A stretch of DNA of 32,000 bases from Methylocaldum marinum (GTDB lineage: Bacteria > Pseudomonadota > Gammaproteobacteria > Methylococcales > Methylococcaceae): assembly GCF_003584645.1 (NCBI RefSeq), contig NZ_AP017928.1, positions 4,446,833 through 4,478,832 on the forward strand. The letters are read 5' to 3'. Below are positions 3,478 to 32,000 of the stretch, piece by piece. Position 1 is the first letter of the stretch. Every line of letters begins with the position of its first letter. The translations under genes and the position numbers were made by a program. A model generated the notes under the pieces. It ran no database searches, was not told the origin of the DNA, and saw only the letters and a list, made by a program, of their open reading frames with translations.

Positions 3478-3786
3478 GAAGCCGACGAAGACGCTCGGGC
3501 GGGGCAGGGCGTCGGGAAAGGATTCCCGACCAGGGTGGCACGGTCGTAGGTCGGCAATCCCTTGCCGACGAAGACGCTCGGGCGGGGCAGGGTGTCGGGA
3601 AAGGATTCCCGACCTACCAGGTGGCACGGTCGTAGGTCGGCAATCCCTTGCCGACGCAGACGCTCGGGCGGGGCAGGGCGTCGGGAAAGGATTCCCGACC
3701 TACAGGGTGGCACGGTCGTAGGTCGGCAATCCCTTGCCGACGAAGACGCTCGGGCGGGGCAGGGCGTCGGGAAAGGTTTCCCGGCC
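3478..3786. repeat. Tandem intergenic repeat, about 4 units of 83-86 bp, each with two perfect 8-bp-stem hairpins (REP/BIME-like)
   Basis: Hairpin A gtcgggaa-agga-ttcccgac at 3511, 3594 and 3680, degenerate at 3766. Hairpin B gtcggcaa-tccc-ttgccgac at 3550, 3636 and 3722. Linker ..gaagacgctcgggcggggcagggc.. is conserved. Confidence 0.9.
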
Positions 3787-15461: not shown

Positions 15462-15720
15462 AGAACCGGGGGTGAGCGGGACCGGTCCCGGCGGCGTGCA
15501 ACCAAATTGCAACATTCCATTGTTACAGTTTGGGGCGAGTCAACGCCCGAGCAACGCTTAGAACAAACCAGGGCAGTTTAGGACGCTCTGATTCGATCCT
15601 TCGACAGGCTCGGGACGAACGGAACCAACTTAAATCAGAGCTCCCCCTAACGGACAGACAGGTTTCGCAAGCCCGGAAATGGCCGTTGACCGCCTGGATG
15701 GACTCAAAAAATCTGACGAA

Positions 15721-19836: not shown

Positions 19837-19966
19837 GATTTTTATTCTTGGAAAATAAAGGTTACCGAATTAAACAGAATCGGCGAGTGGATCGCAAGCG
19901 CGAAGGGCCTGTCCCGAGCCCGGTCGAAGGGCGGTTCCCGCCGGCCGCCGTCTCCTACAACCCGTA

Positions 19967-20211
19967 GTAGGGTGCGGTGAGGAACGAACCGCACCGATCG
20001 CGAACGATGCGGTTCCTTCGTCACCGCATCCTACGAGGTCTCGATTCGAACTGAAGACCACCGGCAGAGAATAGACGAAGGAACCCGTCTTATTCATCCG
20101 GCCCTTAAATACCCTATTGATTCCGTTCGGGCCGAGCTTGTCGAAGCCCCAAGCCGAGTGCCTTTCGACAAGCTCAGGGCGAACGTTATTTTGGGCCGGG
20201 TCAATAATGCT
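19967..20211. repeat. Array-terminal spacer: short REP, CRISPR-like remnant, 12-bp-stem hairpin
   Basis: REP gtagggtgcggtgagg...tcaccgcatcctac at 19967-20034. aggtctcgattcgaac at 20036-20051, then a 35-nt unique segment, then gtcttattcatcc at 20087. Hairpin gagcttgtcgaa/ttcgacaagctc at 20134-20175. Confidence 0.8.
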
Positions 20212-21009
20212 TTAGGGCTGGATCAGCAAGCCCCGGGGCAGGGTAGGGTGCTCCGCCGTGACCGCGAGCCCCCGGCGCAGGCCGAGATTGGCCAGGGCCA
20301 CGGCATAATCGCAGATGAATTCGAACGTCGTATTCTTGCCCTCGCCGCGGGCGTAACCCTGATAGATTTTCAGTTGCGCGGCCAGTCCCTCGTTGAAGCG
20401 CGCCGCGTCCCGCTCCAGGATGCCGGACAGAGCCGTGACGAGCGAGTGGTAGTTCCGGTCCGCCGCGCTTTTGGGCGGTTTGCGGGCGTAATCGTCGAAC
20501 TGCGCCTGCAGCCGCTGGCGGGCGTCTTCGAGGCGGTCCCGCACGGTGAAGGCCAGGGCATTGACATAGCGGTTGACATCGAGGCCGAGGCTGAAGCCGT
20601 CGGGGCGATCACGATACCCGCGTCCCAGTTCGACGGCGAGATCGAAATCGGCGGCCATCAGGGCGAAATTCAGGCCGTCGATGGCGATGGTTTCGCTTAC
20701 GGCGCTGAGGTCGGCTTTTTCCCCCTGATAATCGGGGTCCGTTTCGTCGTAAGCCATGCGGAAGCTTTTCAGGATGTGGCGGGCGGCATTGGCGAACTCG
20801 GCCCGGACCTCGGCGATCGGGTCGCCGTTCAGGAACTTGGCGCGGGCGAGGGAAGCATAAAGCATGGCCGTGCCCGTGTGAACACTCTCGATTGAAATGT
20901 TTTCCGCTTCGTAGAAACCGCTTTTGAAGTCTTCCTCCGTCTGCGTCAGTCCGTCTCTTGCCACCTTTAGCCAATGATCGATCTGCTGCTGTTCCGGTGT
21001 GTTGCTCAT
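20212..21009 (-). CDS. Putative immunity protein, unit 1 (265 aa; allele pattern a-1-1)
   Basis: Its ATG overlaps the stop of the upstream toxin-tip ORF (ATGA). One of 7 paralogs starting MSNTPEQQQIDHWL. The role is inferred from position downstream of the toxin-like domain. Confidence 0.75.
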   Translation of the reverse strand: MSNTPEQQQIDHWLKVARDGLTQTEEDFKSGFYEAENISIESVHTGTAMLYASLARAKFLNGDPIAEVRAEFANAARHILKSFRMAYDETDPDYQGEKADLSAVSETIAIDGLNFALMAADFDLAVELGRGYRDRPDGFSLGLDVNRYVNALAFTVRDRLEDARQRLQAQFDDYARKPPKSAADRNYHSLVTALSGILERDAARFNEGLAAQLKIYQGYARGEGKNTTFEFICDYAVALANLGLRRGLAVTAEHPTLPRGLLIQP

Positions 21010-21401
21010 TTGAACGCCTCTCCGATTACCTGTTTCAGTTCGTTGAAGTTTTCCAGCTCGAATTCGTCCAGGGTTTGGGCGATGTTGCCGTCCGCATCGC
21101 GTTCGAACACGCGCACCCGGCCGGTGTCGGTATTGGTGTGAACGGAGATGTGCTGTTTGTTGCCTTGTTTACGTATTACCTCTCCCCACAAATCGATCTC
21201 CTCCGCCGTGTACGGTCCGCCCTGGCGATTGGAGGGAAGGCCGACCTTCCGGGCCTTGTCTTCAGTCATCAACCGGGCTCTGCTGCGGTTCTTCGCTCGG
21301 GAGCCCTGCCGGTTCCCGTTGATATCCAGCGCCACCGACGTGCTGTCCCGGTTGTTGCCCTTGGCCTCCCACTCGGCCAGCCGGCCGTCCTTCTTCGTCA
21401 T
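21006..21401 (-). CDS. Orphan toxin C-terminal domain cassette, unit 1 (131 aa, variant A)
   Basis: Homologous to the last ~132 aa of the 428-aa gene at 29934-31220. Begins MTKKDGRLAEWEAKGNN. No obvious Shine-Dalgarno, so possibly a silent cassette. Confidence 0.7.
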   Translation of the reverse strand: MTKKDGRLAEWEAKGNNRDSTSVALDINGNRQGSRAKNRSRARLMTEDKARKVGLPSNRQGGPYTAEEIDLWGEVIRKQGNKQHISVHTNTDTGRVRVFERDADGNIAQTLDEFELENFNELKQVIGEAFK

Positions 21402-21697
21402 GTCGTCCGGGCCGTGGTAGCCCGTAGGGTGCGGTGAGGCGCGAACCGCACCGATGGCGCCGGCGAACGGTGCCTGTCCTGAGCGGTGAATGATGCGGTT
21501 CCTTCGTCACCGCATCCTGCGAGGTCTCGATTCGAACCGAAGATGACCGGCAGAGAATAGAAGAAGGAACCCGTCTGATTAATCCGGCCCTTAAATACGC
21601 TATTGATTCCGTTCGGGCCGAGCTTGCCGAAGCCCCAAGCCGAGTGCCTTTCGACAAGCTCAGGGCGAACGTTATTTTGGGCCGGGTCAATAATGCT
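21402..21697. repeat. Inter-cassette spacer: 20-nt coding-homology handle, 97-bp REP, CRISPR-like remnant, hairpin
   Basis: Handle gtcgtccgggccgtggtagc. REP at 21424-21520. aggtctcgattcgaac at 21522, then 35 nt, then gtctgattaatcc. Hairpin gagcttgccgaa/ttcgacaagctc. Confidence 0.8.
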
Positions 21698-22495
21698 TTA
21701 GGGCTGGATCAGCAAGCCCCGGGGCAGGGTAGGGTGCTCCGCCGTGACCTCGAGCCCCCGGCGCAGGCCGAGATTGGCCAGGGCCACGGCATAATCGCAG
21801 ATGAATTCGAACGTCGTATTCTTGCCCTCGCCGCGGGCGTAACCCTGATAGATTTTCAGTTGCGCGGCCAGTCCCTCGTTGAAGCGCGCCGCGTCCCGCT
21901 CCAGGATGCCGGACAGAGCCGTGACGAGCGAGTGGTAGTTCCGGTCCGCCGCGCTTTTGGGCGGTTTGCGGGCGTAATCGTCGAACTGCGCCTGCAGCCG
22001 CTGGCGGGCGTCTTCGAGGCGGTCCCGCACGGTGAAGGCCAGGGCATTGACATAGCGGTTGACATCGAGGCCGAGGCTGAAGCCGTCGGGGCGATCACGA
22101 TACCCGCGTCCCAGTTCGACGGCGAGATCGAAATCGGCGGCCATCAGGGCGAAATTCAGGCCGTCGATGGCGATGGTTTCGCTTACGGCGCTGAGGTCGG
22201 CTTTTTCCCCCTGATAATCGGGGTCCGTTTCGTCGTAAGCCATGCGGAAGCTTTTCAGGATGTGGCGGGCGGCATTGGCGAACTCGGCCCGGACCTCGGC
22301 GATCGGGTCGCCGTTCAGGAACTTGGCGCGGGCGAGGGAAGCATAAAGCATGGCCGTGCCCGTGTGAACACTCTCGATTGAAATGTTTTCCGCTTCGTAG
22401 AAACCGCTTTTGAAGTCTTCCTCCGTCTGCGTCAGTCCGTCTCTTGCCACCTTTAGCCAATGATCGATCTGCTGCTGTTCCGGTGTGTTGCTCAT
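21698..22495 (-). CDS. Putative immunity protein, unit 2 (265 aa; a-1-1, one residue different from unit 1)
   Basis: Identical to unit 1 except LEVTAEH versus LAVTAEH near the C-terminus. Confidence 0.75.
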   Translation of the reverse strand: MSNTPEQQQIDHWLKVARDGLTQTEEDFKSGFYEAENISIESVHTGTAMLYASLARAKFLNGDPIAEVRAEFANAARHILKSFRMAYDETDPDYQGEKADLSAVSETIAIDGLNFALMAADFDLAVELGRGYRDRPDGFSLGLDVNRYVNALAFTVRDRLEDARQRLQAQFDDYARKPPKSAADRNYHSLVTALSGILERDAARFNEGLAAQLKIYQGYARGEGKNTTFEFICDYAVALANLGLRRGLEVTAEHPTLPRGLLIQP

Positions 22496-22887
22496 TTGAA
22501 CGCCTCTCCGATTACCTGTTTCAGTTCGTTGAAGTTTTCCAGCTCGAATTCGTCCAGGGTTTGGGCGATGTTGCCGTCCGCATCGCGTTCGAACACGCGC
22601 ACCCGGCCGGTGTCGGTATTGGTGTGAACGGAGATGTGCTGTTTGTTGCCTTGTTTACGTATTACCTCTCCCCACAAATCGATCTCCTCCGCCGTGTACG
22701 GTCCGCCCTGGCGATTGGAGGGAAGGCCGACCTTCCGGGCCTTGTCTTCAGTCATCAACCGGGCTCTGCTGCGGTTCTTCGCTCGGGAGCCCTGCCGGTT
22801 CCCGTTGATATCCAGCGCCACCGACGTGCTGTCCCGGTTGTTGCCCTTGGCCTCCCACTCGGCCAGCCGGCCGTCCTTCTTCGTCAT
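22492..22887 (-). CDS. Orphan toxin C-terminal domain cassette, unit 2 (131 aa, variant A)
   Basis: Protein identical to the unit 1 cassette. ATGA overlap with the downstream gene. Confidence 0.7.
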   Translation of the reverse strand: MTKKDGRLAEWEAKGNNRDSTSVALDINGNRQGSRAKNRSRARLMTEDKARKVGLPSNRQGGPYTAEEIDLWGEVIRKQGNKQHISVHTNTDTGRVRVFERDADGNIAQTLDEFELENFNELKQVIGEAFK

Positions 22888-23183
22888 GTCGTCCGGGCCG
22901 TGGTAGCCCGTAGGGTGCGGTGAGGCGCGAACCGCACCGATGGCGCCGGCGAACGGTGCCTGTCCTGAGCGGTGAATGATGCGGTTCCTTCGTCACCGCA
23001 TCCTGCGAGGTCTCGATTCGAACCGAAGATGACCGGCAGAGAATAGAAGAAGGAACCCGTCTGATTAATCCGGCCCTTAAATACGCTATTGATTCCGTTC
23101 GGGCCGAGCTTGCCGAAGCCCCAAGCCGAGTGCCTTTCGACAAGCTCAGGGCGAACGTTATTTTGGGCCGGGTCAATAATGCT
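22888..23183. repeat. Inter-cassette spacer (handle, REP, CRISPR-like remnant, hairpin)
   Basis: REP at 22910-23006. aggtctcgattcgaac at 23008. Same b-type variant as 21402-21697. Confidence 0.8.
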
Positions 23184-23984
23184 TTAGGGCTGGATCAGCA
23201 AGCCCCGGGGCAGGGTAGGGTGCTCCGCCGTGACCTCGAGCCCCCGGCGCAGGCCGAGATTGGCCAAGGCGACGGCGTGATCGCAGATGAATTCCTCGTC
23301 GGTGTTCCGGGCCTCGCCGCGGGCGTAACTCTGATAGATTTTCAGTTGCGCGGCCAGTCCCTCGTTGAAGCGGGCTTCGTTCGTGTCCGCAATGCCGGAT
23401 AGAGCCGTGCTCAAGGTGAAGTAGTTCTTGCGATAATCGTTGCGCTTGGATGGCTTGGCCGCATACGCATCGATCTGAGCCGACAACAGCCCGCGGGCCT
23501 GCGGCAGGTCGTCGAGTACGACGGATTTGAGGGCATTGACATAGCGGTTGACATCGAGGCCGAGGCTGAAGCCGTCGGGGCGATCACGATACCCGCGTCC
23601 CAGTTCGACGGCGAGATCGAAATCGGCGGCCATCAGGGCGAAATTCAGGCCGTCGATGGCGATGGTTTCGCTTACGGCGCTGAGGTCGGCTTTTTCCCCC
23701 TGATAATCGGGGTCCGTTTCGTCGTAGGCCATGCGGAAGCTTTTCAGGATGTGGCGGGCGGCATTGGCGAACTCGGCCCGGACCTCGGCGATCGGGTCGC
23801 CGTTCAGGAACTTGGCGCGGGCGAGGGAAGCATAAAGCATGGCCGTGCCCGTGTGAACACTCTCGATTGAAATGTTTTCCGCTTCGTAGAAACCGCTTTT
23901 GAAGTCTTCCTCCGTCTGCGTCAGTCCGTCTCTTGCCACCTTTAGCCAATGATCGATCTGCTGCTGTTCCGGTGTGTTGCTCAT
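23184..23984 (-). CDS. Putative immunity protein, unit 3 (266 aa; a-1-2)
   Basis: N-terminal two thirds match units 1 and 2. The C-terminal third switches to ..KSVVLDDLPQARGLLSAQIDAYAAKPSKRNDYRKNYF... Confidence 0.75.
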   Translation of the reverse strand: MSNTPEQQQIDHWLKVARDGLTQTEEDFKSGFYEAENISIESVHTGTAMLYASLARAKFLNGDPIAEVRAEFANAARHILKSFRMAYDETDPDYQGEKADLSAVSETIAIDGLNFALMAADFDLAVELGRGYRDRPDGFSLGLDVNRYVNALKSVVLDDLPQARGLLSAQIDAYAAKPSKRNDYRKNYFTLSTALSGIADTNEARFNEGLAAQLKIYQSYARGEARNTDEEFICDHAVALANLGLRRGLEVTAEHPTLPRGLLIQP

Positions 23985-24376
23985 TTGAACGCCTCTCCGA
24001 TTACCTGTTTCAGTTCGTTGAAGTTTTCCAGCTCGAATTCGTCCAGGGTTTGGGTGATATTGCCTCTGTGGTCGCGTTCGAACACGCGCACCCGGCCGGT
24101 GTCGGTATTGGTGTGAACGGAGATGTGCTGTTTGTTGCCTTGTTTACGTATTACCTCTCCCCACAAATCGATCTCCTCCGCCGTGTACGGTCCGCCCTGG
24201 CGGTTGGAGGGAAGGCCGACCTTCCGGGCCTTGTCGCGGGTCATCAACTGGGCTCGGACGAGGTTCTTGTCACGCGAGCCCTGCCGGTTCCCGTTGATAT
24301 CCAGCGCCACCGACGTGCTGTCCCGGTTGTTGCCCTTGGCCTCCCACTCGGCCAGCCGGCCGTCCTTCTTCGTCAT
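23981..24376 (-). CDS. Orphan toxin C-terminal domain cassette, unit 3 (131 aa, variant B, a hybrid of A and C patches)
   Basis: Patch 1 DKNLVRAQLMTRDKARK (C-like), patch 2 VIRKQGN (A-like), patch 3 DHRGNITQ (C-like). Confidence 0.7.
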   Translation of the reverse strand: MTKKDGRLAEWEAKGNNRDSTSVALDINGNRQGSRDKNLVRAQLMTRDKARKVGLPSNRQGGPYTAEEIDLWGEVIRKQGNKQHISVHTNTDTGRVRVFERDHRGNITQTLDEFELENFNELKQVIGEAFK

Positions 24377-24672
24377 GTCGTCCGGGCCGTGGTAGCCCGT
24401 AGGGTGCGGTGAGGCGCGAACCGCACCGATGGCGCCGGCGAACGGTGCCTGTCCTGAGCGGTGAATGATGCGGTTCCTTCGTCACCGCATCCTACGAGGT
24501 CTCGATTCGAACTGAAGACCACCGGCAGAGAATAGACGAAGGAACCCGTCTTATTCATCCGGCCCTTAAATACCCTATTGATTCCGTTCGGGCCGAGCTT
24601 GTCGAAGCCCCAAGCCGAGTGCCTTTCGACAAGCTCAGGGCGAACGTTATTTTGGGCCGGGTCAATAATGCT
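24377..24672. repeat. Inter-cassette spacer (handle, REP, CRISPR-like remnant, hairpin)
   Basis: REP at 24399-24495. aggtctcgattcgaac at 24497, then 35 nt, then gtcttattcatcc. Confidence 0.8.
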
Positions 24673-25473
24673 TTAGGGCTGGATCAGCAAGCCTCGGGGC
24701 AGGGTAGGGTGCTCCGCCGTGACCGCGAGTCCCCGGCGCAGGCCGAGATTGGCCAAGGCGACGGCGTGATCGCAGATGAATTCCTCGTCGGTGTTCCGGG
24801 CCTCGCCGCGGGCGTAACTCTGATAGATTTTCAGTTGCGCGGCCAGTCCCTCGTTGAAGCGGGCTTCGTTCGTGTCCGCAATGCCGGATAGAGCCGTGCT
24901 CAAGGTGAAGTAGTTCTTGCGATAATCGTTGCGCTTGGATGGCTTGGCCGCATACGCATCGATCTGAGCCGACAACAGCCCGCGGGCCTGCGGCAGGTCG
25001 TCGAGTACGACGGATTTGAGGGCATTGACATAGCGGTTGACATCGAGGCCGAGGCTGAAGCCGTCGGGCGAATCCCGATACCCGCGTCCCAGTTCGACGG
25101 CGAGATCGAAATCGGCGGCCATGAACGCGTGATTGAAGCCTCGTATGGCGATGGTTTCGCTTACGGCGCTGAGGTCGGCTTTTTCCCCCTGATAATCGGG
25201 GTCCGTTTCGTCGTAGGCCATGCGGAAGCTTTTCAGGATGTGGCGGGCGGCATTGGCGAACTCGGCCCGGACCTCGGCGATCGGGTCGCCGTTCAGGAAC
25301 TTGGCGCGGGCGAGGGAAGCGTGATCTCCCGCAACCGCCGTGTGAACGCATTGCAAGGACACACCATGTTTTTCATGAAACCCTTCCCTGTTCAACCGCC
25401 AGGTCCGTTCAATTTGGTAGCGGGCATTGTTCAGCCAATGATCGATCTGCTGCTGTTCCGGTGTGTTGCTCAT
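24673..25473 (-). CDS. Putative immunity protein, unit 4 (266 aa; b-1'-2)
   Basis: New N-terminal segment NNARYQIERTWRLNREGFHEKHGVSLQCVHTAVAGDHASLA. Middle segment is a hybrid (..IAIRGFNHAFMAADFDLAVELG..). C-terminal third matches unit 3. Confidence 0.75.
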   Translation of the reverse strand: MSNTPEQQQIDHWLNNARYQIERTWRLNREGFHEKHGVSLQCVHTAVAGDHASLARAKFLNGDPIAEVRAEFANAARHILKSFRMAYDETDPDYQGEKADLSAVSETIAIRGFNHAFMAADFDLAVELGRGYRDSPDGFSLGLDVNRYVNALKSVVLDDLPQARGLLSAQIDAYAAKPSKRNDYRKNYFTLSTALSGIADTNEARFNEGLAAQLKIYQSYARGEARNTDEEFICDHAVALANLGLRRGLAVTAEHPTLPRGLLIQP

Positions 25474-25865
25474 TTGAACGCCTCTCCGATTACCTGTTTC
25501 AGTTCGTTGAAGTTTTCCAGCTCGAATTCGTCCAGGGTTTGGGTGATATTGCCTCTGTGGTCGCGTTCGAACACGCGCACCCGGCCGGTGTCGGTATTGG
25601 TGTGAACGGAGATGTGCTGTTTGTCGCCGCCCAATTCGTCAATCTCGCCCCACAGATCGATCTCCTCCGCCGTGTACGGTCCGCCCTGGCGGTCGGAAGG
25701 GAGGCCGGCCTTCCGGGCCTTGTCGCGGGTCATCAACTGGGCTCGGACGAGGTTCTTGTCACGCGAGCCCTGCCGGTTCCTGTTGATATCCAGCGCCACC
25801 GACGTGCTGTCCTGGTTGTTGCCCTTGGCCTCCCACTCGGCCAGCCGGCCGTCCTTCTTCGTCAT
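25470..25865 (-). CDS. Orphan toxin C-terminal domain cassette, unit 4 (131 aa, variant C)
   Basis: Variant C: NNQDSTS, INRNRQGSRDKNLVRAQLMTRDKARKAGLPSD, IDELGGD, DHRGNITQ. Confidence 0.7.
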   Translation of the reverse strand: MTKKDGRLAEWEAKGNNQDSTSVALDINRNRQGSRDKNLVRAQLMTRDKARKAGLPSDRQGGPYTAEEIDLWGEIDELGGDKQHISVHTNTDTGRVRVFERDHRGNITQTLDEFELENFNELKQVIGEAFK

Positions 25866-26161
25866 GTCGTCCGGGCCGTGGTAGCCCGTAGGGTGCGGTG
25901 AGGCGCGAACCGCACCGATGGCGCCGGCGAACGGTGCCTGTCCTGAGCGGTGAATGATGCGGTTCCTTCGTCACCGCATCCTACGAGGTCTCGATTCGAA
26001 CTGAAGACGACCGGCAGAGAATAGACGAAGGAACCCGTCTTATTCATCCGGCCCTTAAATACCCTATTGATTCCGTTCGGGCCGAGCTTGTCGAAGCCCC
26101 AAGCCGAGTGCCTTTCGACAAGCTCAGGGCGAACGTTATTTTGGGCCGGGTCAATAATGCT
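25866..26161. repeat. Inter-cassette spacer (handle, REP, CRISPR-like remnant, hairpin)
   Basis: REP at 25888-25984. aggtctcgattcgaac at 25986. Confidence 0.8.
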
Positions 26162-26959
26162 TTAGGGCTGGATCAGCAAGCCTCGGGGCAGGGTAGGGTG
26201 CTCCGCCGTGACCGCGAGCCCCCGGCGCAGGCCGAGATTGGCCAGGGCCACGGCATAATCGCAGATGAATTCGAACGTCGTATTCTTGCCCTCGCCGCGG
26301 GCGTAACCCTGATAGATTTTCAGTTGCGCGGCCAGTCCCTCGTTGAAGCGCGCCGCGTCCCGCTCCAGGATGCCGGACAGAGCCGTGACGAGCGAGTGGT
26401 AGTTCCGGTCCGCCGCGCTTTTGGGCGGTTTGCGGGCGTAATCGTCGAACTGCGCCTGCAGCCGCTGGCGGGCGTCTTCGAGGCGGTCCCGCACGGTGAA
26501 GGCCAGGGCATTGACATAGCGGTTGACATCGAGGCCGAGGCTGAAGCCGTCGGGGCGATCACGATACCCGCGTCCCAGTTCGACGGCGAGATCGAAATCG
26601 GCGGCCATCAGGGCGAAATTCAGGCCGTCGATGGCGATGGTTTCGCTTACGGCGCTGAGGTCGGCTTTTTCCCCCTGATAATCGGGGTCCGTTTCGTCGT
26701 AAGCCATGCGGAAGCTTTTCAGGATGTGGCGGGCGGCATTGGCGAACTCGGCCCGGACCTCGGCGATCGGGTCGCCGTTCAGGAACTTGGCGCGGGCGAG
26801 GGAAGCGTGCATTCCAGCCAGGGTGCAATACATTCCTTGAATCGGCAGGTTTTCCCGAGCGTAGAAGCCCGAGCGATAGAGTTCCCACTTTTCCGTAATG
26901 CCTTCCTGCGATACCGCGAGCCAATGATCGATCTGCTGCTGTTCCGGTGTGTTGCTCAT
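26162..26959 (-). CDS. Putative immunity protein, unit 5 (265 aa; c-1-1)
   Basis: Unique N-terminal segment AVSQEGITEKWELYRSGFYARENLPIQGMYCTLAGMHASLA. The remainder matches unit 1. Confidence 0.75.
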   Translation of the reverse strand: MSNTPEQQQIDHWLAVSQEGITEKWELYRSGFYARENLPIQGMYCTLAGMHASLARAKFLNGDPIAEVRAEFANAARHILKSFRMAYDETDPDYQGEKADLSAVSETIAIDGLNFALMAADFDLAVELGRGYRDRPDGFSLGLDVNRYVNALAFTVRDRLEDARQRLQAQFDDYARKPPKSAADRNYHSLVTALSGILERDAARFNEGLAAQLKIYQGYARGEGKNTTFEFICDYAVALANLGLRRGLAVTAEHPTLPRGLLIQP

Positions 26960-27351
26960 TTGAACGCCTCTCCGATTACCTGTTTCAGTTCGTTGAAGTT
27001 TTCCAGCTCGAATTCGTCCAGGGTTTGGGTGATATTGCCTCTGTGGTCGCGTTCGAACACGCGCACCCGGCCGGTGTCGGTATTGGTGTGAACGGAGATG
27101 TGCTGTTTGTCGCCGCCCAATTCGTCAATCTCGCCCCACAGATCGATCTCCTCCGCCGTGTACGGTCCGCCCTGGCGGTCGGAAGGGAGGCCGGCCTTCC
27201 GGGCCTTGTCGCGGGTCATCAACTGGGCTCGGACGAGGTTCTTGTCACGCGAGCCCTGCCGGTTCCTGTTGATATCCAGCGCCACCGACGTGCTGTCCTG
27301 GTTGTTGCCCTTGGCCTCCCACTCGGCCAGCCGGCCGTCCTTCTTCGTCAT
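26956..27351 (-). CDS. Orphan toxin C-terminal domain cassette, unit 5 (131 aa, variant C)
   Basis: Protein identical to the unit 4 and unit 6 cassettes. Confidence 0.7.
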   Translation of the reverse strand: MTKKDGRLAEWEAKGNNQDSTSVALDINRNRQGSRDKNLVRAQLMTRDKARKAGLPSDRQGGPYTAEEIDLWGEIDELGGDKQHISVHTNTDTGRVRVFERDHRGNITQTLDEFELENFNELKQVIGEAFK

Positions 27352-27647
27352 GTCGTCCGGGCCGTGGTAGCCCGTAGGGTGCGGTGAGGCGCGAACCGCA
27401 CCGATGGCGCCGGCGAACGGTGCCTGTCCTGAGCGGTGAATGATGCGGTTCCTTCGTCACCGCATCCTACGAGGTCTCGATTCGAACTGAAGACGACCGG
27501 CAGAGAATAGACGAAGGAACCCGTCTTATTCATCCGGCCCTTAAATACCCTATTGATTCCGTTCGGGCCGAGCTTGTCGAAGCCCCAAGCCGAGTGCCTT
27601 TCGACAAGCTCAGGGCGAACGTTATTTTGGGCCGGGTCAATAATGCT
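27352..27647. repeat. Inter-cassette spacer (handle, REP, CRISPR-like remnant, hairpin)
   Basis: REP at 27374-27470. aggtctcgattcgaac at 27472. Confidence 0.8.
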
Positions 27648-28448
27648 TTAGGGCTGGATCAGCAAGCCCCGGGGCAGGGTAGGGTGTTCCGCCGTGACTT
27701 CGAGCCCCCGGCGCAGGCCGAGATTGGCCAGGGCGACGGCATAATCGCAGATGAATTCCTCGTCGGTGTCCTTCAATTCGCCTTGCGCATCGCCCTGATA
27801 AAAGTTCAACTGCATCATCAAACCTTCGTTGAAGCGGGCTTCGTTCGTGTCCGCAATGCCGGATAGAGCCGTGCTCAAGGTGAAGTAGTTCTTGCGATAA
27901 TCGTTGCGCTTGGATGGCTTGGCCGCATAGGCATCGAACTGAGCGGCCAACAACTCTTGGGCACTCCGCAGGTCGTCGAGCAAGACGCCTTTCAGCGCAT
28001 GGGCATATCGGTTGACTTCGACAACTTTTTTTACTCCGTCCGGGCGGTCCCGAAACCAACCGGCCAGTTCGGCGGCCAGGCTGAAGTCGGCGGCCATGAG
28101 TGCGTGATTGAAGCCTCGAATGGCGATGGTTTCGGCGACGCAACTCAAATCGGCGGCACTGCCTTGATAATTGGGGTCCGTTTCGTCGTAGGCCATGCGG
28201 AAGCTTTTCAGGATGTGGCGGGCGGCATTGGCGAACTCGGCCCGGACCTCGGCGATCGGGTCGCCGTTCAGGAACTTGGCGCGGGCGAGGGAAGCGTGAT
28301 CTCCCGCAACCGCCGTGTGAACGCATTGCAAGGACACACCATGTTTTTCATGAAACCCTTCCCTGTTCAACCGCCAGGTCCGTTCAATTTGGTAGCGGGC
28401 ATTGTTCAGCCAATGATCGATCTGCTGCTGTTCCGGTGTGTTGCTCAT
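27648..28448 (-). CDS. Putative immunity protein, unit 6 (266 aa; b-3-3)
   Basis: N-terminal segment matches unit 4. Middle and C-terminal segments are a third type (..GSAADLSCVAETIAIRGFNHALMAADFSLAAELAGWFRDRPDGVKKVVEV.. and ..LMMQLNFYQGDAQGELKDTDEEF..). Confidence 0.75.
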   Translation of the reverse strand: MSNTPEQQQIDHWLNNARYQIERTWRLNREGFHEKHGVSLQCVHTAVAGDHASLARAKFLNGDPIAEVRAEFANAARHILKSFRMAYDETDPNYQGSAADLSCVAETIAIRGFNHALMAADFSLAAELAGWFRDRPDGVKKVVEVNRYAHALKGVLLDDLRSAQELLAAQFDAYAAKPSKRNDYRKNYFTLSTALSGIADTNEARFNEGLMMQLNFYQGDAQGELKDTDEEFICDYAVALANLGLRRGLEVTAEHPTLPRGLLIQP

Positions 28449-28840
28449 TTGAACGCCTCTCCGATTACCTGTTTCAGTTCGTTGAAGTTTTCCAGCTCGA
28501 ATTCGTCCAGGGTTTGGGTGATATTGCCTCTGTGGTCGCGTTCGAACACGCGCACCCGGCCGGTGTCGGTATTGGTGTGAACGGAGATGTGCTGTTTGTC
28601 GCCGCCCAATTCGTCAATCTCGCCCCACAGATCGATCTCCTCCGCCGTGTACGGTCCGCCCTGGCGGTCGGAAGGGAGGCCGGCCTTCCGGGCCTTGTCG
28701 CGGGTCATCAACTGGGCTCGGACGAGGTTCTTGTCACGCGAGCCCTGCCGGTTCCTGTTGATATCCAGCGCCACCGACGTGCTGTCCTGGTTGTTGCCCT
28801 TGGCCTCCCACTCGGCCAGCCGGCCGTCCTTCTTCGTCAT
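28445..28840 (-). CDS. Orphan toxin C-terminal domain cassette, unit 6 (131 aa, variant C)
   Basis: Protein identical to the unit 4 and unit 5 cassettes. Confidence 0.7.
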   Translation of the reverse strand: MTKKDGRLAEWEAKGNNQDSTSVALDINRNRQGSRDKNLVRAQLMTRDKARKAGLPSDRQGGPYTAEEIDLWGEIDELGGDKQHISVHTNTDTGRVRVFERDHRGNITQTLDEFELENFNELKQVIGEAFK

Positions 28841-29136
28841 GTCGTCCGGGCCGTGGTAGCCCGTAGGGTGCGGTGAGGCGCGAACCGCACCGATGGCGCC
28901 GGCGAACGGTGCCTGTCCTGAGCGGTGAATGATGCGGTTCCTTCGTCACCGCATCCTACGAGGTCTCGATTCGAACTGAAGACGACCGGCAGAGAATAGA
29001 CGAAGGAACCCGTCTTATTCATCCGGCCCTTAAATACCCTATTGATTCCGTTCGGGCCGAGCTTGTCGAAGCCCCAAGCCGAGTGCCTTTCGACAAGCTC
29101 AGGGCGAACGTTATTTTGGACCGGGTCAATAATGCT
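28841..29136. repeat. Inter-cassette spacer (handle, REP, CRISPR-like remnant, hairpin)
   Basis: REP at 28863-28959. aggtctcgattcgaac at 28961. Confidence 0.8.
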
Positions 29137-29937
29137 TTAGGGCTGGATCAGCAAGCCCCGGGGCAGGGTAGGGTGTTCCGCCGTGACTTCGAGCCCCCGG
29201 CGCAGGCCGAGATTGGCCAGGGCGACGGCATAATCGCAGATGAATTCCTCGTCGGTGTCCTTCAATTCGCCTTGCGCATCGCCCTGATAAAAGTTCAACT
29301 GCATCATCAAACCTTCGTTGAAGCGGGCTTCGTTCGTGTCCGCAATGCCGGATAGAGCCGTGCTCAAGGTGAAGTAGTTCTTGCGATAATCGTTGCGCTT
29401 GGATGGCTTGGCCGCATAGGCATCGAACTGAGCGGCCAACAACTCTTGGGCACTCCGCAGGTCGTCGAGCAAGACGCCTTTCAGCGCATGGGCATATCGG
29501 TTGACTTCGACAACTTTTTTTACTCCGTCCGGGCGGTCCCGAAACCAACCGGCCAGTTCGGCGGCCAGGCTGAAGTCGGCGGCCATGAGTGCGTGATTGA
29601 AGCCTCGAATGGCGATGGTTTCGGCGACGCAACTCAAATCGGCGGCACTGCCTTGATAATCGGGGTCCGTTTCGTCGTAGGCCATGCGGAAGCTTTTCAG
29701 GATGTGGCGGGCGGCATTGGCGAACTCGGCCCGGACCTCGGCGATCGGGTCGCCGTTCAGGAACTTGGCGCGGGCGAGGGCGGCATGCCAGCCTGCCAGT
29801 CCAGTAAAATGAATTTGAAGTGAAATGTTCTTTTTTTCATAGAACCCTTCTGCGTAAAGTTGGTGCTTACGGGCAATCCGTGTTGTTGCCGTATTAAGCC
29901 AATGATCGATCTGCTGCTGTTCCGGTGTGTTGCTCAT
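29137..29937 (-). CDS. Putative cognate immunity protein of the full-length toxin, unit 7 (266 aa; d-3-3)
   Basis: Directly downstream of the 428-aa gene with an ATGA overlap. Unique AT-richer N-terminal segment NTATTRIARKHQLYAEGFYEKKNISLQIHFTGLAGWHAALA. The rest matches unit 6. Confidence 0.78.
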   Translation of the reverse strand: MSNTPEQQQIDHWLNTATTRIARKHQLYAEGFYEKKNISLQIHFTGLAGWHAALARAKFLNGDPIAEVRAEFANAARHILKSFRMAYDETDPDYQGSAADLSCVAETIAIRGFNHALMAADFSLAAELAGWFRDRPDGVKKVVEVNRYAHALKGVLLDDLRSAQELLAAQFDAYAAKPSKRNDYRKNYFTLSTALSGIADTNEARFNEGLMMQLNFYQGDAQGELKDTDEEFICDYAVALANLGLRRGLEVTAEHPTLPRGLLIQP

Positions 29938-31220
29938 TTGAACGCCTCTCCGATTACCTGTTTCAGTTCGTTGAAGTTTTCCAGCTCGAATTCGTCCAGG
30001 GTTTGGGCGATGTTGCCGTCCGCATCGCGTTCGAACACGCGCACCCGGCCGGTGTTGGTGTTGGTGTGGACGGAGATGTGCTGTTTGTCGCCGCCCAATT
30101 CGTCAATCTCGCCCCACAAATCGATCTCCTCCGCCGTGTACGGTCCGCCCTGGCGATTGGAGGGGAGTCCCACTTTGCCTTGTTGTTCCTTTCCTAGCAG
30201 GGTCCGAGCGCGTAATTGATTCTTATCTCTAGACCCTTGCAAATTGCCGTGCTTATCCATTGCCACCGACGTGCTGTCCTGGTTGTTGCCCTTGGCCTCC
30301 CACTCGGCCAGCCGGCCGTCCTTCTTCGTCATGTCGTCCGGGCCGTGGTAGCGGTCCACGTAGCGCGGGTCGGAGCGGTGTCCCAGCCGGCGCTTGGCTT
30401 GCTCCAGCCCGGCCTTGCCCAGCGCCTCGGGCGCCGAGCGGGTGTTGTGGGTCAGGATCTGCTTGAGATCGGCCGCGAATTCGTCCGGGTGGCGCACCAC
30501 CGAGCGGAACCGGGTGGCCAGGGCCATGGCGGCGGACAGCATCGCGCCCGCGCCGGCCGAGTCGCGGACCACGCGCGCCCCGTCGGCCTCGCCGTCGCCG
30601 ACCGGGGGCAGCAGGTCCCGCCCGTCCGTCTCGTAGCGCTGCCGGACCGCGCCGGGACCAAGGGTTTCGCCGGTGGCCCGGTCCCTGAACGCCACGATGT
30701 TCCGCTCCGCCAGCCATTCGGCATTCATCGCCGCGTTGGCCTTGGCGAAGCGATTGCCCAGTTCCTTCGCCCCGCCCACCGCCTTGTCCCACCACGACCC
30801 CGGGGCCGAGCCCCGGCGCGTGGGCGTTTCGTTCAAGCGGCGGAGGATGTCTTCCAGGCGCCGGCGGAGGATCGGAAGCTCCGTCATAGAAAGGTTGCTC
30901 ACCCAGCGGCCTCGATCCGCGGATTCGCCGTCCGCTTGCCAGCGGACCACCGGCGCAAAGGGCCGCTTACCGGATTCATGGACCAGGAAAACTTCCCCGT
31001 AGTCGATCTCGTCCAGCAACAGGTCGAGAGTTGCCGGATCCCAGTGCGGCGGGGGATCGAGATCGTCGAACAGGTCGGCCAGCACGTCGTCGAGGTCCCA
31101 GATGCGGTCCGGCTCGTCGTCATCGAGGAACGCCCATTCGATGTCCGAACGGGCAAAGAAGGGATGCTCGATGTTCGGCAGGTCCGACCATTCGAGGTCC
31201 TCGGGGCGTTTCAGTCTCAT
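29934..31220 (-). CDS. Full-length polymorphic-toxin-like protein (428 aa): unique acidic N-terminal ~296 aa plus variable ~132-aa C-terminal domain (variant D)
   Basis: GAGAGGGA RBS lies 8-10 nt upstream of ATG 31220. The C-terminal part from ..YHGPDDMTKKDGRLAEWEAKGNN is homologous to the six 131-aa cassettes. No signal peptide or recognisable trafficking domain by eye. Confidence 0.85.
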   Translation of the reverse strand: MRLKRPEDLEWSDLPNIEHPFFARSDIEWAFLDDDEPDRIWDLDDVLADLFDDLDPPPHWDPATLDLLLDEIDYGEVFLVHESGKRPFAPVVRWQADGESADRGRWVSNLSMTELPILRRRLEDILRRLNETPTRRGSAPGSWWDKAVGGAKELGNRFAKANAAMNAEWLAERNIVAFRDRATGETLGPGAVRQRYETDGRDLLPPVGDGEADGARVVRDSAGAGAMLSAAMALATRFRSVVRHPDEFAADLKQILTHNTRSAPEALGKAGLEQAKRRLGHRSDPRYVDRYHGPDDMTKKDGRLAEWEAKGNNQDSTSVAMDKHGNLQGSRDKNQLRARTLLGKEQQGKVGLPSNRQGGPYTAEEIDLWGEIDELGGDKQHISVHTNTNTGRVRVFERDADGNIAQTLDEFELENFNELKQVIGEAFK

Positions 31221-31330: not shown

Positions 31331-31521
31331 GTTGGGTGAGGCGCGACGACCCGGCGCGTGATTCGGTGTGCTCGGCAGCGGCGAATGATGCGGGCGGCTT
31401 TGCTCACCACAGCCTACGGCCCGTAGGGTGCGGTGAGGCACGAACCGCACCGATGGCGTTCTCGAACGATGTCTGTCCCGCGCCCGTAGAAGGGCGGTTT
31501 CCTTCGTTCGTCGCAATCTAC
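31331..31521. repeat. Two adjacent REP elements of the gtagggtgcggtgagg family
   Basis: gggtgaggcgcga...ttgctcaccacagcctac at about 31331-31416. gtagggtgcggtgaggcacgaaccgcaccg...cgtcgcaatctac at 31423-31521. Confidence 0.75.
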
Positions 31522-31564
31522 GGTTTTTCCCCTCGGTGTTTGACGAAATGCCAGGTTTTTTCCC

Positions 31565-31944
31565 GATTGGGTCCCTTCTTTATCAGGTCTCGATTCAAAC
31601 ATCAATGAAGTTGCCCCAGACGAAAAGATGTCGAAGTCTTAATCCCTTCTTTATCAGGTGTCGATTCAAACAGATGAATCCCGCAGAACTTGCGGCTTAT
31701 CTGAAGTCTTAATCCCTTCTTTATCAGGTCTCGATTCAAACGTTCAAGGGCGCGAAGACGACCGTGGCATGCCTCCGCGTCTTAATCCCTTCTTTATCAG
31801 GTCTCGATTCAAACCAAGGAGCAGCTGGCGACAACGCAGGGGAAGCGGCGTCTTAATCCCTTCTTTATCAGGTCTCGATTCAAACACCACAGTTGGCGGG
31901 ATGTCGATGCCGCGCTTCGCGTCTTAACAGGCTGTTGAAATTCG
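31565..31944. CRISPR. CRISPR array: 36-bp repeat GTCTTAATCCCTTCTTTATCAGGTCTCGATTCAAAC with five spacers of 34-37 bp; both terminal repeats degenerate
   Basis: Repeats at 31565 (5 mismatches), 31636 (1 mismatch), 31706, 31779 and 31850, plus a truncated repeat at 31921 (gtcttaa then cagg..). Unique spacers at 31601-31635, 31672-31705, 31742-31778, 31815-31849 and 31886-31920. No cas genes in the window and orientation is unresolved. Confidence 0.9.
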
Positions 31945-32000
31945 CCTCCATGCCTTCGGCTTTACCCCTTATCGGCGGCTTAATTTTTAGTGCTGAAGGT

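Follow-up and report, generated by a model that had tools for sequence, protein, structure and literature searches.

Every junction of a tandem toxin-immunity cassette array carries a 64-bp CRISPR-like element, which we call psi, and which is probably a relic of a decaying type III CRISPR array that was stranded by the insertion of a toxin module and REP elements and then passively amplified. In such a relic, a single old spacer of 35 nt would be flanked by 16-20 nt from the 3' end of one repeat and by 9-13 nt from the 5' end of the following one. In what follows, the window denotes the whole 32-kb stretch of DNA that was analysed; the coordinates of its features are collected in Table 1.

Table 1 Features of the cassette array, its junctions and the neighbouring CRISPR array (positions are those of the window)
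Feature	Position	Strand	Remark
psi copy 1	20036-20099	-	variant A
psi copy 2	21522-21585	-	variant B (GTCTGATTAATCC)
psi copy 3	23008-23071	-	variant B
psi copy 4	24497-24560	-	variant A
psi copy 5	25986-26049	-	variant A, one C>G change in the pseudo-spacer
psi copy 6	27472-27535	-	variant A'
psi copy 7	28961-29024	-	variant A'
REP doublet	19967-20034	.	two inverted arms, GTAGGGTGCGGTGAGG...CGTCACCGCATCCTAC, directly abutting psi copy 1
REP, longer form (~97 bp)	21424-21520, 22910-23006, 24399-24495, 25888-25984, 27374-27470, 28863-28959		before the other six psi copies
REP doublet	31423-31523	.	between the toxin promoter region and the genuine array; without the AGGTCTCG motif after it
Second palindromic element	20113-20185	.	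22-bp stem (CGTTCGGGCCGAGCTTGTCGAA / TTCGACAAGCTCAGGGCGAACG), between psi and the immunity stop codon
Full-length toxin	29934-31220	-	428 aa
Imm49-family immunity gene, cassette 1	20212-21009	-	
Other six immunity genes	21698-22495, 23184-23984, 24673-25473, 26162-26959, 27648-28448, 29137-29937	-	
Orphan toxin C-terminal fragment	21006-21401	-	131 aa
Other five toxin C-terminal fragments	22492-22887, 23981-24376, 25470-25865, 26956-27351, 28445-28840	-	
Orphan CRISPR array	31565-31927	-	degenerate distal repeat at 31565-31600
Four full repeats of the array	31636-31671, 31706-31741, 31779-31814, 31850-31885	-	
Leader-proximal repeat stub	31921-31927	-	ends after GTCTTAA (7 nt)

Layout of the cassette array

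On the minus strand of the window, one full-length toxin gene is followed in tandem by seven Imm49-family immunity genes and six C-terminal fragments of the toxin, with a repeating unit of 1486-1489 bp that holds a REP element, psi, a hairpin element, an immunity gene and a toxin C-terminus. The orphan toxin-immunity cassette arrays of polymorphic effectors (Rhs, CDI, T6SS) have the same layout, in which a full-length toxin is followed by tandem C-terminal fragments, each with its own immunity gene. The Imm49 family was reportedly described by Zhang et al. in 2012. Sequence searches of Pfam, NCBIfam and the PDB returned no match for the toxin family, and homologues of the toxin (P0021-P0027) are fused to N-terminal PAAR or Hcp domains, from which it would appear that the toxin is probably a T6SS-delivered effector paired with Imm49. 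Three of the immunity proteins (i2, i4, i6) share 100% identity with sS8_4118, sS8_4122 and sS8_4126 of Methylocaldum marinum S8, the window thus coming from this strain or one nearly identical to it, and two further immunity paralogues of M. marinum S8, sS8_5545 and sS8_5547 (P0150, P0153; 88% and 92.5% identical to the nearest window copies), indicate a second toxin-immunity cassette locus in the same genome.

The coding regions of the array are mosaic. Mutual identity among the seven immunity proteins ranges from 67 to 99.6%, the C-terminal parts of the toxin are 80-100% identical with block-wise sharing (t4 = t5 = t6, t1 = t2), and units as a whole are 76-99% identical, whereas the ~320-bp junctions are almost the same throughout and far more conserved than the coding parts. 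This suggests that the junctions evolve in concert, while the coding parts diversify or exchange alleles. Conserved junction homology between diversifying coding parts is a trait shared with other orphan toxin-immunity arrays, and is typical of recombining arrays of this kind. The present array differs from them in the make-up of its junction, which combines a REP doublet with a CRISPR fragment and a second hairpin element. On a metagenome contig (L132), a cassette that is absent from the window is followed by the identical hairpin-psi-REP junction.

Anatomy of psi

At 7/7 sites, psi consists of AGGTCTCGATTCGAAC, exactly 35 nt, and then GTCT(T/G)ATT(C/A)ATCC, this second piece reading GTCTTATTCATCC in five copies and GTCTGATTAATCC in the copies at 21522 and 23008. 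The original prediction had given the seven starts and the 35-nt distance correctly, and had likewise been right about the match of 15/16 between AGGTCTCGATTCGAAC and the 3' part of the genuine repeat, where the counterpart in five genuine repeats is AGGT(C/G)TCGATTCAAAC. Read on the plus strand, psi corresponds to repeat positions 21-36 (15/16), a 35-nt pseudo-spacer (TGAAGACCACCGGCAGAGAATAGACGAAGGAACCC) and repeat positions 1-9 (8/9). In the RNA sense, the junction begins with the immunity stop codon, the 22-bp-stem hairpin, which recurs in every junction, a stretch of ~13 nt and GGATGAATAAGAC (the last 9-13 nt of the repeat), and continues with the 35-nt pseudo-spacer, GTTCGAATCGAGACCT (the first 16-20 nt of the repeat), the REP doublet and the next toxin fragment; psi is thus bordered by the REP doublet on one side and has the hairpin element ~13 nt away on the other. 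Its orientation matches that of the neighbouring array, with the crRNA sense on the minus strand, the same as that of the toxin genes. Two metagenome contigs from independent assemblies (L001 and L132, JGI) carry the psi sequence in its context, and psi is therefore not an assembly artefact.

The genuine array and its repeat family

The genuine array, which lies 1.6-11.5 kb from the psi copies, has a 36-nt repeat (GTCTTAATCCCTTCTTTATCAGGTCTCGATTCAAAC) and spacers S1-S5 of 35, 34, 37, 35 and 35 nt, in keeping with the 34-37 nt originally stated. Among the matches listed, the same 36-nt repeat is found in long arrays of species-representative genomes, one in a contig labelled as a MAG of Methyloversatilis universalis (L017/L027) and two in a Methylococcaceae bacterium (L094, L099); the arrays with identical repeats comprise 9-33 units. 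The 16-mer otherwise drew a large number of single chance matches in these genomes. In L017, the array sits after the genes for Cas10/Csm1, Csm2 and three RAMP proteins, separated from them by a leader of ~75 nt that is conserved across all three arrays (L017, L094, L099). The repeat is thus a genuine CRISPR repeat associated with cas genes, its family is type III, and this arrangement defines the crRNA sense as GTTTGAATCGAGACCTGATAAAGAAGGGATTAAGAC, that is, the minus strand of the window. Type III crRNAs are processed by Cas6 and carry an 8-nt 5' tag from the repeat; for the present repeat, the predicted tag is ATTAAGAC.

The array in the window is itself a leaderless orphan remnant. The ~75-nt leader conserved in the three arrays named above is missing from it, the stretch beyond spacer S5 (31886-32000) has just GTCTTAA of a repeat followed by unrelated sequence, and there are no cas genes in the 32-kb window. 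On either side the array breaks off at repeat position 7/8, one nucleotide from the predicted Cas6 site, which may be a coincidence. The breaks at 7/8 brought up a retro-copied, Cas6-processed pre-crRNA as a conceivable source of psi, and this idea was dropped because the ends of psi do not fit it.

Statistical support for a CRISPR origin

Since all psi copies stem from one duplicated junction, we counted the seven as one event, using one unit plus the unique sequence (23.1 kb) as the test sequence and dinucleotide shuffles as the null. The 15/16 match alone is borderline under this scheme, being equalled in 3/300 shuffles (p about 0.01). Local alignment to a repeat-N35-repeat composite, by contrast, gives a score of 40, which is reached in 0/2500 shuffles (mean 21.7, sd 2.1, maximum 34) and corresponds to P = 1.3e-5 by a Gumbel fit, and the second match, 8/9 ungapped at exactly 35 nt, has a conditional p of about 1e-3. 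The composite shuffle test rejects a chance resemblance, and the original prediction that psi is CRISPR-derived, in array orientation and within a tandemly amplified segment, holds up when its seven copies are counted once. The homology rests on short matches, about 25/72 repeat positions having survived. psi is significantly similar to an array repeat from the same genome, and with its spacer-length gap and its shared orientation it has the features of a degraded mini-array; it lacks the two full-length direct repeats of a bona fide CRISPR array. Another repeat-like match, of 13/16 at 21389, recurs in every unit and at 30320, and we judged it to be chance because it also lies within the coding sequence of the full-length toxin.

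Outside the two pieces, the likeness to the repeat ends abruptly. No repeat similarity is detectable upstream of the 16-20-nt piece (p about 0.84), nor in the second piece once its initial 9-13 nt are passed (p 0.1-0.5), so that the recognisable repeat is limited to positions 21(17)-36 and 1-9(13). We also considered that the second piece might be a full decayed repeat, and that the missing half of the first piece might be hidden in or behind the REP element, and found no similarity either way. Given this abrupt loss on both sides, the term truncated fits psi better than decayed: the original description of a decayed repeat-spacer-repeat was correct in seeing a CRISPR fragment and needs amending as to how it was reduced. 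psi is a well-preserved fragment with rearrangement-type boundaries, and not a point-mutated full unit.

Relation of psi to REP and hairpin elements

As had been noted originally, psi abuts the right arm of a REP element, and a REP element also precedes the genuine array, ending 41-48 bp short of its terminal repeat. REP/BIME elements thus flank both psi and the array. A related half-element of the junction hairpin (TTCGACAGGCTCGGGACGAACGGAACCAA, about 26/30 nt) is found at 15590-15635, between the gene for a 1306-aa protein and an aminotransferase gene, which makes the junction hairpin a member of a second dispersed repeat family. To the left of the first REP doublet, at 19905-19960, there is a partial REP of the right-arm type (GAAGGGCGGTTCCCGCCGGCCGCCGTCTCCTAC), and the PEMT-side flank of psi is accordingly a REP pile-up. 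Elsewhere in the window, an 86-bp tandem repeat (3.6 copies, 94% matches) of palindromic REP-like units occupies 3481-3783, between the genes for an ABC-transporter ATPase and a GntR regulator.

With psi placed between two dispersed repeat elements, one could ask whether it is itself a sequence of the REP cluster, its CRISPR resemblance being coincidental or a by-product of REP. The 15/16 match by itself, borderline across the window, would leave room for this, and part of the pseudo-spacer does relate to REP: the 12 nt at its 3' end (GACGAAGGAACC, 20074-20085) are the exact reverse complement of the loop of the REP right arm (GGTTCCTTCGTC, 20011-20022), 51 nt apart, and the next 15 nt, including GTCTTATTCATCC, align weakly to the REP arm (about 10/15 with gaps, by eye). 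That weak alignment is nevertheless surpassed by the ungapped 8/9 match to the repeat at exactly 35 nt, and the composite geometry, with P about 1e-5, is not accounted for. Moreover, in the other REP copies examined, one at 31423-31523 and a further three or four in L126, the element stops at CCTACG and gives way to unrelated sequence without the psi motif. Two pattern scans of a metagenome collection that apparently does not include this organism gave no matches, which speaks for neither side. The AGGTCTCG... motif is absent from the consensus of these copies, and psi, as judged from this small sample, would seem to lie outside the REP consensus, contrary to the notion that the motif belongs to the REP family. 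We therefore regard a coincidental resemblance, or an origin of psi from REP, as very unlikely.

The complementarity between the pseudo-spacer and the REP loop is present in every junction, with one mismatch in variant B, and has an estimated local chance probability of about 0.005. It could reflect a REP-derived protospacer, a structural element or chance, and it counts against a pure reading of the pseudo-spacer as an old spacer, which does not predict it.

Origin and amplification of psi

The tandem units follow the full-length toxin as far as ...GGGCCGTGGTAGC, where REP (CCGTAGGGTGCGG) takes over with GTAG(C) microhomology at the switch, so that toxin codon ~297 is fused directly to REP at the duplication junction. 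It follows that the duplicated unit never held the present edge of the array. The leftmost psi stands outside the last cassette and adjoins the PEMT gene, which gives the ancestral order on the plus strand as PEMT, REPs, psi, hairpin, immunity gene, toxin gene, REP, 45 nt and array. In a PEMT relative (81% identical), homology stops exactly at the start of the REP/psi/cassette region. Toxin-immunity homologues of 47-52% identity (L123, L125, L126) are single two-gene modules in unrelated contexts without a psi-like sequence, and a further cassette (L133), whose immunity gene is 66% identical, is again a single module in another neighbourhood without psi. The module is thus mobile, and psi belongs to the landing site and not to the module.

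These observations bear on the original proposal that the tandem unit arose from a duplication that took in the terminal repeat-spacer-repeat of the array at 31565-31927, which would make psi a paralogue of Rterm-S1-R2. psi and the real terminal repeat are indeed each preceded by a REP element in the same orientation, the long form of REP in the junctions is similar to the one beside the array even in its internal linker, and S1 is the best of the five real spacers for all three variants of the pseudo-spacer. The match to S1 is however not significant, at about 50% identity with gaps (uncorrected p 0.02-0.15), compared with about 92% in the repeat parts, and a pseudo-spacer unrelated to S1-S5 means that psi is not a paralogue of the present array edge. 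Furthermore, neither the N-terminus of the toxin and the promoter nor the 45-nt linker and the edge of the array fall within the boundary of the unit, and psi beside PEMT, on the far side of the toxin-immunity pair and outside the last cassette, fits an ancestral site downstream of the immunity gene. We consider it unlikely, therefore, that psi was copied from the terminal unit, and the idea of a duplicated segment that held the array edge does not agree with a junction running from codon ~297 to REP.

For the stranded type III relic that we favour, we propose the following course of events. A mobile toxin-Imm49 module and REP-type short repeats would have invaded a decaying array in M. marinum, the mobility of the module being apparent from its homologues, and would have left one repeat-spacer-repeat downstream of the immunity gene and a leaderless remainder upstream of the toxin gene. 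An illegitimate junction between an internal toxin site (...GTGGTAGC) and the left edge of a REP element (CCGTAGGG) may then have created the 1.49-kb unit, which unequal crossing-over may have raised to seven copies. psi would be passenger DNA without activity of its own, carried in a junction that recombination keeps homogeneous alongside diversifying coding parts. An uninterrupted ancestral array was not found, the closest relatives being contigs of about 1 kb, and we therefore infer the order of the insertions. It is attractive, but unprovable, that a single repeat was split by the insertion, with the second piece of psi keeping positions 1-10 and the real terminal repeat positions 8/9-36 (and a possible target duplication of 2-3 bp), since distal repeats are commonly degenerate anyway (cf. 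L099). An integron attC-like nature of the junction was also considered and rejected: there is no intI, there are no R'/R'' cores, and the cassettes are paralogues.

Assessment of a possible function

Being in the same sense as the toxin-immunity operon and placed between the cassettes, psi is probably transcribed, and one could speculate that it constitutes a functional crRNA-like RNA, co-transcribed with each cassette as a CreA/crlRNA-type regulator or a repeat-mimic decoy, that ties in cassette expression or CRISPR activity. There are precedents in CreTA, in toxin-regulating mini-arrays and in Racr solitary repeats, and the original prediction had itself raised functional solo-repeat RNAs as an alternative. 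The junction RNA is strongly structured (z = -7.4), which is due to the REP and hairpin elements, and conservation is much higher across the junction as a whole than in the coding regions, which could hide a function and speaks against a passive relic. Within the junction, however, psi is the most variable stretch, with 7/10 variable sites in its 66 nt compared with 3 across the remaining 224 nt (Fisher p = 0.0016), and thus the least constrained part; nor is it more conserved than its surroundings in related loci. Variant A has small hairpins that include psi; variant B disrupts them, with no compensating changes.

The requirements for processing point the same way. The putative 5' tag (AATAAGAC, compared with ATTAAGAC) agrees at 7/8 positions in variant A, which favours a functional RNA, but at just 6/8 in variant B. 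The upstream remnant (9-13 nt) is without the 23-27-nt repeat body recognised by Cas6, and the downstream remnant is without a cleavage site; judged from their sequence, neither would be expected to support Cas6 processing. There is no promoter-like site on the minus strand upstream of psi, the adjacent array is leaderless, and Rfam returned no family for the window.

A search for targets was equally unrewarding. The pseudo-spacer has no match elsewhere in the window, where its best ungapped target reaches 20-21/35 as against 19-23 for shuffled 35-mers, and among phages and plasmids, where the original prediction had proposed to look, it gave only partial matches with E of at least 1. Type III mini-arrays have moreover been judged non-functional (Shmakov et al. 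2023). We accordingly give little credence to psi as a functional RNA. It seems more improbable still that psi RNAs are loaded into a type III effector, perhaps without Cas6, or titrate Cas6/Csm, so that CRISPR and toxin cassettes regulate or stabilise each other; if true, type III CRISPR and a secreted toxin would here be coupled in the manner of CreTA.

Comparison with known mini-arrays and solitary repeats

A published survey found mini-arrays in the vicinity of 10-14% of type III loci; they showed neither conservation nor targets and were judged to be degraded and non-functional (Shmakov et al. 2023, bioRxiv 10.1101/2023.03.03.530964 / NAR). psi shares with them the two repeat-like pieces around a spacer-length insert, located outside but near an array of a type III family, a partial match at about the 16-bp threshold of that survey, and the absence of a detectable target and of a conserved position. 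It differs in that both remnants are under half length, truncated by the insertion of short dispersed repeats, and in that it has been amplified seven-fold within the junction of a toxin-immunity cassette. psi is thus a further instance of a degraded type III mini-array, unusual for its sevenfold hitch-hike.

With the CreTA and crlRNA mini-arrays (Li et al. 2021; Shmakov et al. 2023), psi has in common a pseudo-repeat/pseudo-spacer/pseudo-repeat arrangement that is physically linked to a toxin gene. [quoted passage not shown] A promoter-complementary spacer, as in crlRNA and CreA, is thus missing from psi, as are Cas6-sufficient repeats with the correct 5' handle, which it would need to be processed. 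The toxins differ as well, the CreTA toxin being a Cascade-repressed RNA toxin and the present one a secreted polymorphic toxin with a protein immunity partner. The Racr solitary repeat units (Camara-Wilpert et al. 2023, PMC10651486) are likewise multi-copy, repeat-derived sequences outside an array, but they are full repeat mimics on phages or mobile elements that bind Cas proteins, while psi is chromosomal and has no full repeat.

Significance

Were Cas proteins to process or bind psi, it would connect type III CRISPR with cassettes for interbacterial toxins, and no finding here points in that direction. There is a practical side to its being a passive passenger, in that repeat-based CRISPR finders and mini-array surveys could score seven regulatory candidates where there was one passive event. 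We see psi as a clean natural example of the death of a CRISPR array, in which the array was broken by REPs and a mobile module, its leader was lost, and a fragment was stranded and multiplied sevenfold by an unrelated amplification. As such it is a neat curiosity rather than a new mechanism, and it can usefully serve as a marker when the history of the cassette array is reconstructed.
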